DNA of 64,000 bases from a virus. Lineage: Duplodnaviria; Caudoviricetes. The notes beneath the pieces are model-generated. The model ran no database searches and was not told the DNA's origin. It was given only the letters and a program-made list of their open reading frames with translations. Positions 3,889-51,346 of the stretch are shown here, piece by piece. Location of the stretch: positions 22,925 through 86,924 of IMG/VR virus record IMGVR_UViG_3300033519_000155; one strand, given 5' to 3'. Position numbers and translations under genes: made by a program. Each line of letters starts with the position of its first letter. The first letter of the stretch is position 1.

Positions 3889-4842
3889 CTATTTGTTATC
3901 CTTTCTTGAAATATAAACAGTCCCGGAATATTCTTTACGCAAATCTCTAAATAAGTCATTTATCCGAGTGTTCATTCTGTCTTTCTTTCCCTGAGAAGTT
4001 ACAAAATTTGTTAACTTCCTTATTTCAATTTTAACCATATCAACAAAATCATCAAAGGACAGTTCTTTACCCAAAAATTCTACAAAACTTTTCCCGGAAC
4101 AATACGGACATTTAACTATAGGTTTATTATAGGGTTCTATTAAACTTTCTATAAATAAGTCTAAATTACGTAATAAATCTCCATAATCTTTTCCCACTAA
4201 TGGAGGAATATGGTCTCTTTTTATAACATAAATACTATGTTTTTCCTGAGTAAAAGGATTTTTTCTATATAAACGAATTTCCCCTGAATATTCATACATA
4301 TCTACCTCTAAATAATTTTTATTAACCCTTTCAGCTAATTCCTTACAGAGAATAGTCCAAACAACATCTCTATGAAACGTGCAGGGTAAATTTATCCACT
4401 CTTTTTTTGGATAAGTTATTTCATGCAATAAAGAAACATCAATATTACCCAAGTATTTTATATTTGAAACTTCAAGCTCGGTTTGAGAGCTACTTATCTG
4501 AAAAGGCACAAGGGTAAATACATCTGAATATTCTCCTGTGCGTTCGTAATAATCATCAAGTCCTTCTGGAAGATTTTGATATTCTTCCGCAGAAATATCC
4601 GATTTTGCCACATAGGGAGATGTGGAAACATAACGAGGATTTATCATTTCCTGTGATTTTCTTGTTAATTCCACTGGATATTCCTCACATTCCCACCAGT
4701 GAGTTAATTCAGTAGATTTACAAAATTCTAAAAAAGGTTTACCATTTACTAAATAATTTTTTCTATCTCCCGAATAAATATCACCAAAATTTATAAAATA
4801 TCCTCCCTTAGTCTTTTTGATTATCTCTAAATTTATCATCAT
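3889..4842 (-). CDS. Hypothetical protein
   Basis: 317-aa ORF; CPYC motif. Confidence 0.85.
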   Translation of the reverse strand: MMINLEIIKKTKGGYFINFGDIYSGDRKNYLVNGKPFLEFCKSTELTHWWECEEYPVELTRKSQEMINPRYVSTSPYVAKSDISAEEYQNLPEGLDDYYERTGEYSDVFTLVPFQISSSQTELEVSNIKYLGNIDVSLLHEITYPKKEWINLPCTFHRDVVWTILCKELAERVNKNYLEVDMYEYSGEIRLYRKNPFTQEKHSIYVIKRDHIPPLVGKDYGDLLRNLDLFIESLIEPYNKPIVKCPYCSGKSFVEFLGKELSFDDFVDMVKIEIRKLTNFVTSQGKKDRMNTRINDLFRDLRKEYSGTVYISRKDNK

Positions 4843-5113
4843 ATTCTCTCCTTATCTTTTTTATAAATTTTCTACCTTTTTTGATAAACCAGTTATAATT
4901 TGAAATATCCTCACTTATTGACGTAATAAAATCTTCAGCATCTTCTTCATTATCAAACTCTAATTTCATACCTCCATTATCACAATCTACTATCATATTT
5001 AAAGTATCATCAAAAGACTCATAACTATTGCTATCTAAACTTCTCCATTTCCCCTTTGAAAAAGTAAAAATAATACTTTCATTATCCGAATACGTAACAG
5101 TTGCTTTTAACAT
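4808..5113 (-). CDS. Acidic hypothetical protein
   Basis: ORF track; SD GAGAAAGGGG. Confidence 0.75.
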   Translation of the reverse strand: MLKATVTYSDNESIIFTFSKGKWRSLDSNSYESFDDTLNMIVDCDNGGMKLEFDNEEDAEDFITSISEDISNYNWFIKKGRKFIKKIRREYDDKFRDNQKD

Positions 5114-5131
5114 CTTATTTCCCCTTTCTCA

Positions 5132-5302
5132 CTAATGTTTTGCTACTAAAGAAACAAACCAAAATTCCCTATGACAATTAATACAAGAACACCTGTAAAA
5201 ACTTTTTGTTTTTACTAACCCGAAATGTTCGTTCTTATCATCTTTTTCAAGAATTTTTATATTATTACTCTGACAATAAGGACATTCCAATAGGTTTGAC
5301 AA
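5132..5302 (-). CDS. 56-aa Zn-ribbon microprotein (TTG start)
   Basis: Hand-translated MSNLLECPYCQSNNIKILEKDDKNEHFGLVKTKSFYRCSCINCHREFWFVSLVAKH; AGGAGG 9 nt before TTG. Confidence 0.7.
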   Translation of the reverse strand: MSNLLECPYCQSNNIKILEKDDKNEHFGLVKTKSFYRCSCINCHREFWFVSLVAKH

Positions 5303-5776: not shown

Positions 5777-5805
5777 ATTATATCATATGATTTTATGATT
5801 GTCAA
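5777..5805 (-). promoter_or_regulatory. sigma70-type promoter
   Basis: TTGACA-17-TATAAT with TGn. Confidence 0.9.
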
Positions 5806-13162: not shown

Positions 13163-13191
13163 ATTATATAATAACATTTTTAAATTGTCAA
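13163..13191 (-). promoter_or_regulatory. sigma70-type promoter for helicase/primase/SSB
   Basis: TTGACA-17-TATAAT. Confidence 0.88.
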
Positions 13192-17735: not shown

Positions 17736-17740
17736 CATGC

Positions 17741-17775
17741 AAAAAGACTGGAAAGAGCAGTAATCCAGTTTTTTT
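17741..17775 (+). terminator. Terminator of the plus-strand operon
   Basis: ACTGGA/TCCAGT stem plus T-run. Confidence 0.7.
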
Positions 17776-17847
17776 ATTTTTAATTATAATTATATTTCAA
17801 TCACTAATAGTATAGCATAAAAGGTCTAAAAATCAATATGGAAATTT

Positions 17848-17883
17848 AAAAACCTCTCGGTTAATTACTCCGGGAGGTTTTTT
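17848..17883. terminator. Bidirectional terminator
   Basis: AAAAACCTCTCGG/CCGGGAGGTTTTT. Confidence 0.8.
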
Positions 17884-17937
17884 GTGAGAAAGGGGAAAAA
17901 AAGACGAACTGGATAGTGTATATATTTTAGTATCTAT

Positions 17938-17966
17938 ATATTATCACAAGGTTTATTCTTTTTCAA
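17938..17966 (-). promoter_or_regulatory. Putative leftward promoter for an ORF-less ~85-nt RNA
   Basis: TTGAAA-17-TAATAT with TGn; terminator ~85 nt downstream. Confidence 0.5.
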
Positions 17967-18173
17967 GAGGTAATTTTAAATTTCTAAAATACCTATCCCG
18001 AAATAGAAATTTTCCAGAGAGAAACGAAATCTTTTAGGGGTAGGTGCTTCTATAACCTCTTAAAAGGTCAATTATTACCTTCAGATATTCTAATGCAACT
18101 GAGAGCTTCACAGTTCGTTTTACGAGGGGTATGCTAAAAAGCGGTCGCTTCCCATATTTTTTATTAACTCTCT

Positions 18174-18286
18174 TAGTATATATACTATTAATTTTAATGT
18201 TTTTATTCATTTCTTTTAATTATTCCTTATATCTATTATCTTTTTCTTATATTAATTATTTATTTTATTATTAGTATATATACTAA
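18174..18286. repeat. Two copies of the palindrome TAGTATATATACTA in a very AT-rich tract
   Basis: 18174-18187 and 18272-18285 (the latter extends to 16 bp). Confidence 0.85.
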
Positions 18287-18421
18287 GTAATATTATTTTA
18301 TATTAATTATACTATCAATATATCCAGTTCTTGCAACATATAAAAAATAATATACCTATACCTCCGGGATTACACCTTTATTTAAAAATTTACTATAAAT
18401 ATTATAATAATGTGAAATTTA

Positions 18422-19882
18422 TTATAATAATATTTCTTCTGTTATAGGAACTAAATGTAAAGTAGTTAAATCCTCTGAGTATTTAAACATTCTCCCATAA
18501 CCAATAAAATTTTTATAAGGAGAAGCTTTCTTTCTTGCTTTTCTTGTTTTGTAGGGTTTCCGTTTCTTTCGAGGTTTAACTATTATTTCCTCAGATATGA
18601 TATGTGGAGTATAGTGTTTTTGATAAAGTTCTTCTTGTTCTGGTGTCAGGGGTAATGTTTTTTCTACACTGGGAGCTATTGTTTCAATAACTCCAGTTCT
18701 AGCATCTCCACAAGGATAAGTTTCACTCTTTTCCTTGCTTCGTGGAATTTCTTCCTTTACGGTATTACCGCAGGTTGCCGCACACAACATTCGATTTTTA
18801 AGGTTACGTGCAGAATTAACATTACGGTCTTCCTCCATACCACAATTTGAACATTTATAAACACGTTCATTTAACTTTTGTTTTTGCTCTGCTCCACAGC
18901 AGGAACAAATTTGACTTGTCTTATATTCATCAACAAAATAAACAGTTCTTCCTTCACGCTCTGCTAAAGTCTTAAAGGTGCGTAAGAACAAATCTTTTGA
19001 TGGCATAACCATATTTTTATTACCTACAAATATCTGTCCTTCGGGATTATGCTGGAGAAAACTGTGGATTTTTTCTTCATATTTTCTTTTTAGGTATCTC
19101 TTTACTTTACGTTCCAGTTTATCAATTCTTATTGCTAAATCTCTTTTCTTACTGTTAGATAAGTATTTATGATTATTTTTAGTTTTAAGAAGAGTTTTCA
19201 GGTGTTTTATTTTTTTGTTTGACCTGTCTAAATAAGGTATTATTTCAGGGGCAGTTTCCTTATATCCTTTGTCTGTTGTGATTAAGTCTATTCTGCCACA
19301 GTCAACAAATATTTTTTCTATGTTTTCAGATATTTCTATTGAATATGGGATATGAAAGTTTAAAAAGATTTCATTTGTATTTTTATTCTGGTAAACCACT
19401 AAATCTGTTATTTTACACTCAGGGACAGGGTGCTGTAAGTTAACAGTTATATTAGATTGGTTTTTTCCTGTATGCAAGCTAATAGTGTATTTGTCTATTA
19501 GGGTAAATGCTTTACGAGAGTAACGCATCGCAAAAATATATCCGGGTTCTTGCTGTTTTAACTGTTTGGCAGTTACAGCGTTACCCCGAATATCTCTAAA
19601 AATATTACTATAGACATAGCTTGATACTAAAGATGATTGTTCAAACTTACGTATATGTTGTAAGGAATTGCTTTTTAAATGATTGAATATTTTATTATTC
19701 TGTAAATCTGATGGGTTCTTTACACTGTTACAGAAATGGTTATAAACCTCTCTACAATAGAAGGATAGTCTGATTAACGTATTATGTAAATCTTTTGTGT
19801 AATAAGCTTTTATACTCTGAGTTTTAAAACCATCTATTTTCATTAAATAATTTTTACACCTTTTATTAAAATCTGTTGACAT
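18422..19882 (-). CDS. tnpB: Orphan TnpB-like protein, probably nuclease-dead, with long C-terminal extension
   Basis: RuvC-I IFVDCG; canonical RuvC-II E replaced (IFVGN) with alternative E in VDEYKTS; Zn finger CSCC/CSNC; RuvC-III DRNVNSARNL; no tnpA; alternative start 19843. Confidence 0.88.
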   Translation of the reverse strand: MSTDFNKRCKNYLMKIDGFKTQSIKAYYTKDLHNTLIRLSFYCREVYNHFCNSVKNPSDLQNNKIFNHLKSNSLQHIRKFEQSSLVSSYVYSNIFRDIRGNAVTAKQLKQQEPGYIFAMRYSRKAFTLIDKYTISLHTGKNQSNITVNLQHPVPECKITDLVVYQNKNTNEIFLNFHIPYSIEISENIEKIFVDCGRIDLITTDKGYKETAPEIIPYLDRSNKKIKHLKTLLKTKNNHKYLSNSKKRDLAIRIDKLERKVKRYLKRKYEEKIHSFLQHNPEGQIFVGNKNMVMPSKDLFLRTFKTLAEREGRTVYFVDEYKTSQICSCCGAEQKQKLNERVYKCSNCGMEEDRNVNSARNLKNRMLCAATCGNTVKEEIPRSKEKSETYPCGDARTGVIETIAPSVEKTLPLTPEQEELYQKHYTPHIISEEIIVKPRKKRKPYKTRKARKKASPYKNFIGYGRMFKYSEDLTTLHLVPITEEILL

Positions 19883-19910: not shown

Positions 19911-20058
19911 ATAACCTTTTTTCAATTTTTGTCGGATATTAGTTGAAAAAGGGTTGCTTGATTTTAACCCCTTATTTTCATCTAGTTTAGTGTAACGAAT
20001 ATTTTTATCCTATCATACATTTTTTAGATTGTAAATAATGTTTTAAAACTTTTTTTAA
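19911..20058 (+). ncRNA. Candidate TnpB-associated RNA (5' hairpin, 24-nt segment matching the portal promoter, U-tract)
   Basis: 15-bp stem 19913-19927/19941-19955 at predicted +1; 24-mer at 20014-20037; T-run near 20051-20057. Confidence 0.4.
20007..20035 (-). promoter_or_regulatory. Probable tnpB promoter
   Basis: TTTACA-17-TAGGAT with TGn; -35 and spacer identical to the portal promoter. Confidence 0.7.
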
Positions 20059-28047: not shown

Positions 28048-28404
28048 TTAACCGGGTTCTCCTCCTTCAATGTAATGAGAAAACACCTGTATTCCAAAAG
28101 GAATTCCCCCACCATAACCTCTTTCTTTTTCTGGAGATAAAGTCCAGTTTGAAAGAGAAGTTATCTGAGGCATATTTTTATTTCCATTTAAATAGTAAAC
28201 GATTACATCGTCTTTTTCTTTTAAAATTAAATCGGAAGAAACTCTAGGAACTCTTACCAATTCAGCATTTCTTGACATAATTAAAACATTATAGAACCCA
28301 TCAGTATAATCTCTGGTAATCTGCCCTGTTTCATTTTGGACTCCTTCAATTACGGCACGTCTGGCAACATAATTTCCTCTTTCGATATTTGACATTAAAT
28401 CCAT
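28048..28404 (-). CDS. Small tail-tip (OB-fold/spike-like) protein, copy 2
   Basis: 96/118 identical to 29390-29746 by manual alignment. Confidence 0.7.
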   Translation of the reverse strand: MDLMSNIERGNYVARRAVIEGVQNETGQITRDYTDGFYNVLIMSRNAELVRVPRVSSDLILKEKDDVIVYYLNGNKNMPQITSLSNWTLSPEKERGYGGGIPFGIQVFSHYIEGGEPG

Positions 28405-29389: not shown

Positions 29390-29746
29390 TTATTCGGGTT
29401 CTGTCCCTGCCATGTAAGTTACAAACATATTAATTCCAAAAGGAATTCCTCCACCATAACCTTTCTCTTTCTCAGGAGATAAAGTCCAATTAGAAAGAGA
29501 AACTATTTGAGGCATGTTCTTGTTACCATTAATATAATAAACAACTACATCATCTTTATCCTTTAAAACTAAGGAAGATGCAACTCTTGGGACTCTTACC
29601 AGTTCCTCATTTCTTGCAGTAATTAATACATCATAAAACCCATCAGTATAATCTCTGGTAATCTGCCCTGTTTCATTTTGAACACCTTCAATTACTGCTC
29701 TCCGAGCAACGTAATTTCCACGTTCAATATTCGTCATTGAGTCCAT
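29390..29746 (-). CDS. Small tail-tip (OB-fold/spike-like) protein, copy 1
   Basis: DVVVYYINGNKNMPQI motif; follows hub-like genes. Confidence 0.7.
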   Translation of the reverse strand: MDSMTNIERGNYVARRAVIEGVQNETGQITRDYTDGFYDVLITARNEELVRVPRVASSLVLKDKDDVVVYYINGNKNMPQIVSLSNWTLSPEKEKGYGGGIPFGINMFVTYMAGTEPE

Positions 29747-51273: not shown

Positions 51274-51302
51274 ATACTAACATACATTTTTTAGATTGTA
51301 AA
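51274..51302 (-). promoter_or_regulatory. Portal-operon promoter, probably giving a leaderless mRNA
   Basis: TTTACA-17-TAGTAT with TGn; ATG 7 nt after the -10; no SD. Confidence 0.7.
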
Positions 51303-51346
51303 TACTACACTAATAAAAAACGAAAAAAAGTGAAAAAAAGTTTATT

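Follow-up and report, generated by a model that had tools for sequence, protein, structure and literature searches.

Does a TnpB protein that has become fixed in the genome of a large phage still cut DNA, or has it turned into a protein that binds DNA under the direction of an RNA? The question is raised by a tnpB-derived gene in the window, the whole stretch of viral DNA analysed here, which makes up the final 64 kb of a viral contig from IMG/VR (86.9 kb) that CheckV estimates to represent ~54% of the genome. The answer that we favour, and to which we would give about an even chance, is that the gene encodes an immobilised, vertically inherited TnpB of large microbial-mat phages, which is cleavage-impaired and acts as an RNA-guided DNA-binding factor. 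Judged from its sequence, this TnpB probably binds DNA rather than cutting it. An earlier, model-made reading of the same letters (the original prediction) had described the product as a domesticated, Fanzor-like and probably nuclease-dead TnpB. The gene is placed as follows.

18422..19882, minus strand: tnpB-derived gene, 486 amino acids (aa) from Met1; probable start Met14 at 19843, giving 473 aa

Gene callers also give the 473-aa form, and the close relative P0002, introduced below, begins at Met14. Fold and sequence homology alike place the product in the TnpB superfamily. The Pfam family Cas12f1-like_TNB (PF07282) matches at 1.2e-16, PHROG phrog_506 ("transposase") matches residues 20-385 at 8e-27, and the NCBIfam model guided_TnpB aligns end to end over residues 25-364, where its score of 60 bits falls short of the cutoff of 100. 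An AlphaFold2 model that draws on 75 homologs has high confidence in the core (residues 1-357 in Met14 numbering; predicted local distance difference test, pLDDT, mostly >85), while the pLDDT of residues 360-473 (Met14 numbering) is <50. Foldseek finds bacterial ISFba1 TnpB (8iaz, E 2e-16) as the top match of this model in the PDB, followed by Cas12f, ISDra2 TnpB (8h1j, 1.8e-14) and, in tenth place, Fanzor2 (9b0l). Structurally, then, the product of 18422..19882 is a complete, if divergent, TnpB of WED-REC-RuvC-TNB fold, in which the WED/REC, RuvC and zinc-finger parts are all kept.

The active site is where the protein departs from this pattern. Its residues were assigned by an alignment of 87 full-length relatives and by a phmmer alignment to ISDra2 TnpB (8bf8/8h1j).

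19301..19303, minus strand: RuvC-I Asp194 (GAC), intact, aligned with the GIDxG Asp
19022..19024, minus strand: Gly287 (IFVGN), in the column of the canonical RuvC-II Glu in the 87-sequence alignment
18926..18928, minus strand: relocated Glu319 (VDEYKTS), in a column that is Pro or Arg in canonical TnpBs
18842..18907, minus strand: zinc finger CxxC...CxxC (C326, C329, C344, C347), intact
18821..18823, minus strand: Asn354 (AAT, EDRNVN), at the RuvC-III catalytic Asp in the phmmer and 87-sequence alignments

The original prediction had read these same features (the RuvC-I Asp, Gly for the RuvC-II Glu, a Glu in VDEYKTS, and DRN), and the alignments bear out every one. Glu is found at the second position in all six other aligned sequences without the RuvC-II Glu (P0019, P0084, P0093, P0112, P0118 and P0139). 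Glu319 hence co-varies with loss of the canonical Glu, the pattern expected of the published Glu-to-Gly rearrangement with an alternative Glu (PMC10691335). At RuvC-III, phmmer pairs EDRN-VNSARNL with HDRD-ENAALNI of ISDra2 TnpB and, by counting, Asn354 corresponds to D361, which has been named as catalytic in that enzyme (PMC10097598). The acidic triad (D-E-D, with the Glu possibly relocated) is incomplete: D194 and E319 are present, and the third member is Asn354. TnpB ceases to cleave when any DED residue is mutated, and TldRs, which are TnpB-derived RNA-guided DNA binders, have been described with one altered residue (PMC10705468). By analogy, we infer that the D-to-N change at 354 would abolish or strongly weaken DNA cleavage. 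Probable nuclease impairment is the part of the "probably nuclease-dead" claim that is supported; the word "dead" rests on one substitution and on the published DED mutants (PMC10705468).

The Asn is a stable feature of the lineage. A search of two libraries holding ~15 billion proteins returned a single close relative, P0002, which is 73% identical, is encoded by a related phage on a 6.2-kb Logan contig (L002), and shares the Gly, the Glu, the Asn and the C-terminal tail. The Asn codon in P0002 is likewise AAT, while the two codons preceding it differ synonymously (GAC/GAT, CGT/AGA), and in contigs from two further samples the codon is covered without differences. By the Nei-Gojobori method, the ratio of nonsynonymous to synonymous divergence (dN/dS) between the window gene and P0002 is 0.19 overall, 0.16 in the core and 0.32 in the tail, with more than half of the synonymous sites changed. 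At this ratio, and with the frame open in both phages, tnpB is under purifying selection and is not decaying, which rules out the decay that the original prediction had named among its grounds for refutation.

The next relative, P0019, is 32% identical (E 1e-23) and groups with the pair at a Shimodaira-Hasegawa-like approximate likelihood ratio (SH-aLRT) of 96 in a quick tree, which did not include Fanzor sequences. P0019 has the Gly and the relocated Glu, yet it keeps DRD, and all other rearranged relatives keep the Asp as well; the D-to-N change therefore arose after the P0019 split, inside this phage lineage. Rearranged TnpBs are polyphyletic, occurring in at least three places in the quick tree (three changes needed). 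Three scans of viral contigs added nothing beyond one weak TnpB fragment (L003), and a scan of genome contigs found no further relative. A possible relative, P0020, was set aside, as its contig is 672 bp long and probably chimeric. In contigs of four mat runs the same phage was re-found, together with one variant piece in the tail-coding region; more generally, the phage recurs in several microbial-mat metagenomes.

The locus itself does not look like that of a transposon. The tnpB gene is single-copy in the 87-kb contig, and profile searches of this contig for a Y1 transposase, a resolvase and a tyrosine integrase, in which the positive controls worked, found none, in agreement with the claim that no tnpA or recombinase is present. 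A TnpA partner, left and right transposon ends, and multiple or mobile copies are likewise not seen in the ~54%-complete contig. L002 is syntenic with the window on both sides, with the lysin gene end and the promoter region upstream and the convergent genes downstream, so that tnpB occupies one and the same locus in both phages, flanked by the lysin and a convergent operon. This is a conserved neighbourhood of non-transposon type, as is required of a TldR, in two phages. Homology between the window and L002 starts at the tnpB start codon; thus, no left transposon end is conserved. More distant lysin loci do not have the gene: there is no tnpB behind the lysin in large phages (184-234 kb) with lysins 39% identical, nor in an 11.7-kb contig with a lysin 42% identical. 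A lysin-based search for an empty site found nothing in IMG/VR, and these 39-42% relatives are too distant for boundary mapping. Recent mobility of tnpB is rejected by the synteny with L002. Taken together, the synteny, the single copy, the lack of a recombinase and the tnpB-less distant lysin loci indicate that tnpB was acquired specifically in this lineage and has been passed on vertically since then. The domestication that the original prediction proposed is consistent with this picture: a single copy with no recognisable insertion sequence (IS), at the same locus in two diverged phages and under purifying selection.

L002 differs at the 5' side of the gene. Three extra genes, encoding 168, 41 and 62 aa, lie at L002:503-1339 between the shared promoter and tnpB, and the 62-aa open reading frame (ORF) overlaps the tnpB start. 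The 168-aa product is a double helix-turn-helix (HTH) protein (UPF0122 / sigma-70 region 4-like). It was considered as a TnpA and rejected, being an HTH protein without a resolvase catalytic domain; it may be a regulatory partner that the window phage has lost or never gained.

If the protein is guided by an RNA, the DNA directly 3' of the gene is the place to look for it, since the omega-RNAs of TnpB loci lie where this block adjoins the stop codon (PMC10097598).

18182..18421, minus strand: conserved non-coding block 1, directly 3' of the stop codon, 88-98% identical to L002; candidate guide-RNA scaffold
18272..18285, no strand assigned: 14-nt perfect palindrome TAGTATATATACTA, copy 1
18174..18187, no strand assigned: palindrome TAGTATATATACTA, copy 2, 98 nt from copy 1

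Block 1 (240 nt) is 88-98% identical between the phages, against ~77% for coding DNA. In the adjacent codons of the tail, 28-58% of synonymous sites have changed, so block 1 is the more conserved of the two. This conservation suggests a functional RNA or DNA element. Furthermore, synonymous divergence drops toward the 3' end of tnpB, as would be expected if an RNA overlapped that end. A search of Rfam returned only tRNA-Gln, with sub-threshold matches that are noise. Small conserved ORFs were considered for the 3' region and none was found; an antisense frame of 38 codons is conserved merely because the DNA is.

The palindrome TAGTATATATACTA is confined to its two sites in the 87-kb contig, and it has a wider distribution of its own. 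A search for pairs of TAGTATATATACTA 70-100 nt apart found 85 metagenome contigs (L006-L090), with a GC content of 0.19-0.65. In these, longer perfect palindromes are built around an invariant TAGTATATATACTA, with 8-21-nt arms that vary from copy to copy, and the loci hold 2-4 copies, 87-128 nt apart (e.g. L083:1654-1901, L050:4225-4467 and L064:6060-6172). Ten long contigs were examined, and in each of them a conserved ~295-aa ORF without a Pfam match lies downstream of the copies; a convergent ~290-aa ORF comes next in at least six of the ten, and all three of those scanned are AbiEii toxins (PF08843). The metagenome palindromes may be operators of an AbiEi-like regulator. The phage copies are without the arms seen in the metagenome copies.

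Beyond block 1, a diverged stretch leads into a second conserved block, 17739-17984, made up of two mini-genes, each with a promoter and a terminator, on the tnpB strand.

17985..18181, minus strand: diverged stretch, 46-68% identity, with a 51-nt indel; holds a conserved 22-nt island at about 18091-18112
17845..17966, minus strand: mini-gene 1, promoter TTGAAA-17-TAATAT (17938-17966), ~85-nt transcript, bidirectional terminator 17850-17886
17884-17898, minus strand: UUUCCCCUUUCUCAC, inside mini-gene 1
17738..17836, minus strand: mini-gene 2, promoter TTGATT-16-TATACT (17809-17836), ~60-nt transcript, bidirectional terminator 17740-17775

Between the window and L002, the -35/-10 hexamers of the mini-genes are kept and their spacers are not, and a compensatory change is seen in one terminator. 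The sequence AACUGGAU occurs in the terminator stem of mini-gene 2 and in block 1, with its complement in mini-gene 1. Within mini-gene 1, UUUCCCCUUUCUCAC is a 15-nt perfect antisense match to the Shine-Dalgarno (SD)/ribosome-binding region (5118-5132) of the gene 4808..5113. In this AT-rich genome, matches of at least 15 nt were found in 79 of 117 control windows, few of them as GC-rich, and the match of 17884-17898 to 5118-5132 is thus only of marginal significance. As a guide it also fits poorly, since its distance from a possible pseudoknot partner departs from the architecture of ISDra2, in which the guide follows the pseudoknot (PMC10097598). The mini-gene 1 homologue in L002 is antisense to an SD plus ATG. 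The mini-gene 1 RNA is, from its sequence, a candidate trans-acting antisense small RNA derived from a duplicated 5' untranslated region.

Other potential guides gave no convincing match. For a candidate guide following ...AUGGGAAG, past the end of block 1, the 87-kb contig offers no match of more than 12 nt, and the conserved 22-nt island has no match in 185,579 genomes (GTDB). A more elaborate arrangement would be a split guide, in which a tracr-like scaffold, formed by the tnpB end and block 1, pairs through GAACUGGAUA (18322-18331) with UAUCCAGUUC (17905-17914) of the mini-gene 1 RNA, whose UUUCCCCUUUCUCAC matches the ribosome-binding region (5118-5132) of 4808..5113; a cleavage-impaired TnpB would then control, under RNA guidance, how the phage expresses its own genes. 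We regard this arrangement as a long shot.

The promoter of tnpB also supplied a supposed guide.

20007..20035, minus strand: tnpB promoter TTTACA-17-TAGGAT with TG, near-identical to 51274-51302 and conserved in L002

The two near-identical promoters (TTTACAATCTAAAAAATGTATGnTAGnAT), at 20007-20035 and 51274-51302, are both on the minus strand. A 24-nt identity between 20014-20037 and 51281-51304 was tried as a guide and rejected: it belongs to the shared promoter, which is conserved in L002 and accounts for the identity without a guide. In L002, three genes separate the conserved promoter from tnpB. Both promoters are members of a wider phage promoter family, TTGACAAT..AAAAA..TATGATATnAT, which is also represented at 5777-5805, 13163-13191 and 15158 (plus strand), and at three sites upstream of the window.

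The second distinctive part of the protein is its tail.

18425..18787, minus strand: C-terminal extension, aa 366-486 (~120 aa), with a variable linker, a basic patch and a conserved C-terminal ~35 aa
18527-18577, minus strand: basic patch K436-K452, conserved in P0002

A basic extension of ~120 aa had been part of the original prediction, and it is indeed present and conserved in P0002. The first ~35 tail residues can be loosely aligned with the C-terminus of P0019, which contains Cys. The basic patch K436-K452 and the final ~35 residues occur in the window phage and its sister alone. Searches of Pfam, PHROG and Atlas found no relatives of the tail; only P0002 carries a homolog. AlphaFold2 models it as disordered (pLDDT <50), with a short C-terminal beta-hairpin. 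Constraint on the tail is weaker than on the core, yet real (dN/dS 0.32). Nothing supports an enzymatic effector role for the tail, which the original prediction had suggested might be an effector, and the simplest guess is a nucleic-acid-binding or partner-binding peptide.

How would such a protein work? In the reading that we favour, the D-to-N change would leave a protein that, like TldR or Cas12m, binds DNA under RNA guidance; the RNA that it carries would be transcribed from the tnpB end and the conserved 3' block. Once bound, TnpB would block transcription or replication at its target, which may lie in the host, in a rival element or in the phage itself, and the basic, disordered tail would add non-specific nucleic-acid affinity or a partner-binding peptide. 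Several points weigh against this proposal. The family consists of two close members only, and of its three catalytic positions just one has really changed. In some branches, RuvC-III sites with conserved substitutions may still be active: altered sites (e.g. D-to-H) are conserved in large branches and have been proposed to remain active (PMC10691335). Evidence for an RNA in block 1 is mixed. RNAalifold on the two sequences gives 95 pairs, of which 5 are compensatory, and 12 of 500 shuffles were as good, with the structure being derived from the same two sequences used to judge it; single-sequence folding is unremarkable (z -1.1). The block is AT-rich and holds promoter-like sites and two palindromes, and it could be regulatory DNA. 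Finally, searches of the 87-kb contig, and of the GTDB genomes with the 22-nt island, revealed neither a guide-scaffold boundary nor a target-adjacent motif (TAM) or target. The key evidence for an RNA-guided repressor, as the original prediction had it, is missing, since the searches yielded neither guide nor target.

It is possible, though rather unlikely in our view, that the protein is still an RNA-guided nuclease or nickase, with Asn354 or a neighbouring acidic residue (E350, E351 or D352) supporting metal binding in the rearranged site, which cuts host or rival-phage DNA or serves in homing. Two of the three catalytic positions and the zinc finger are intact, and the D-to-H-type branches just mentioned offer a precedent (PMC10691335). 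Set against this are the loss of cleavage in DED point mutants of TnpB (PMC10705468) and the lack of any mobility or extra copies. The Asp is kept by the nearest outgroup, P0019, and by every other rearranged relative, so that the Asn is derived, and it coincides with fixation at the phage locus. Alternatively, the protein may not target DNA through a guide in cis, and may bind or process RNA or be a structural or packaged protein, in which case the downstream DNA would be an independent regulatory and small-RNA region (promoters, operators and two small-RNA genes) that merely neighbours tnpB. This we hold to be unlikely, more so than a surviving nuclease. It would account for the two promoter-terminator units of block 2 with their conserved hexamers and variable spacers, for the two identical palindromes of block 1, whose 14-mer is operator-like elsewhere in metagenomes, for a tnpB promoter of the same subclass as 51274-51302, and for the absence of a guide or target from the search results. 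It fits poorly with the retention of all nucleic-acid-binding domains in a confident fold, with a block 1 that abuts the stop codon in the omega-RNA position of TnpB loci (PMC10097598), and with a conservation of synonymous sites that rises across the 3' end of tnpB. A decaying transposon remnant without function is very improbable. One catalytic residue has been lost, and there is no TnpA or recognisable transposon end, as a remnant would have it; however, both phages keep the frame open although more than half of the synonymous sites differ between them (dN/dS 0.19), the fold is confident, the promoter is conserved, and even the tail is constrained (dN/dS 0.32).

Among known systems, the closest kind is that of TldR and the inactivated TnpBs (PMC10691335, PMC10705468), of which the present proteins are a new, tiny lineage. 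Like the TldRs of the fliC_P-, oppF- and csrA-associated clades (PMC10705468, PMC13622181), they combine a TnpB fold with a deteriorated RuvC triad, have lost the transposon context, and sit at a fixed locus in phage with a long conserved 3' non-coding region at the guide-RNA position. Their putatively inactivating RuvC mutation (D-to-N) is conserved in both members and affects one residue only; the original TldR screen required at least two altered residues, and one-residue TldRs have been described (PMC10705468). While many TldRs are truncated, the zinc finger and the RuvC C-terminus are kept here. The lineage furthermore descends from an ancestor with Gly and a relocated Glu, bears the extra ~120-aa basic tail, has no associated fliC or opp gene, and resides in a phage contig without an integrase. 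A guide matched to a target, as expected of a TldR, has so far not been found.

The RIIr TnpBs (e.g. RIIr-5, with Glu-to-Gly, and the virus-enriched RIIr-4; PMC10691335) similarly have Gly in the Glu column and a Glu before the zinc finger (xxE-x-x-TS). They are predicted to be active and are mostly mobile, whereas the TnpB described here also has Asn at RuvC-III and is immobile. With Fanzor1 and Fanzor2 the protein shares the relocated RuvC-II Glu and a Lys/Arg-rich stretch resembling a nuclear localisation signal; unlike them, it belongs to a bacterial virus, and its basic stretch is C-terminal, in a disordered tail. Fanzors are found in eukaryotes and their viruses and branch with Fanzor1/2, which does not describe this protein, and the relocated Glu is widespread in prokaryotic TnpBs (PMC10691335). 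Of the "Fanzor-like" label, then, the Glu relocation stands, while the polyphyly of rearranged TnpBs and the tenth rank of Fanzor2, behind bacterial TnpB and Cas12f, speak against it; the product of 18422..19882 is not a Fanzor. Finally, Cas12m, Cas12k and dCas12f-sigmaE (PMC13472631) bind under RNA guidance without cleavage through partial or total RuvC degeneration, as is putatively the case here. They differ from a protein that descends directly from TnpB and has no CRISPR array, sigma-factor partner or transposition genes.

The exaptation of TnpB into RNA-guided DNA binders is already known from TldR, Cas12k/m and dCas12f-sigmaE, and the described phage cases are temperate phages remodelling host flagella. 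If the reading proposed here is true, it would represent an independent origin from a lineage with an already rearranged active site, in a large phage without signs of lysogeny, caught at the earliest stage, with one Asp-to-Asn change and with the zinc finger and RuvC C-terminus intact. It would offer a clean natural test of whether a TnpB nuclease becomes a binder through one RuvC-III substitution alone. At 473 aa the protein is a compact candidate scaffold for programmable binding, and the tail and adjacent small-RNA genes may give clues to the way in which phage regulation incorporates such proteins. This value is limited as long as guide and target are missing.

The window phage contig encodes a DNA polymerase, an Amidase_2+SLT endolysin, one tRNA and a weak terminase-like match. 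Its lysin, sigma-70-type promoters and SD sites point to bacteria as the hosts, and the phage is large and probably virulent, with no sign of lysogeny. Elsewhere in the window, a 44-nt exact direct repeat (28295-28338 and 29637-29680) links the neighbouring 118-aa genes 28048..28404 and 29390..29746, and suggests, from the sequence, a recent tandem gene duplication.

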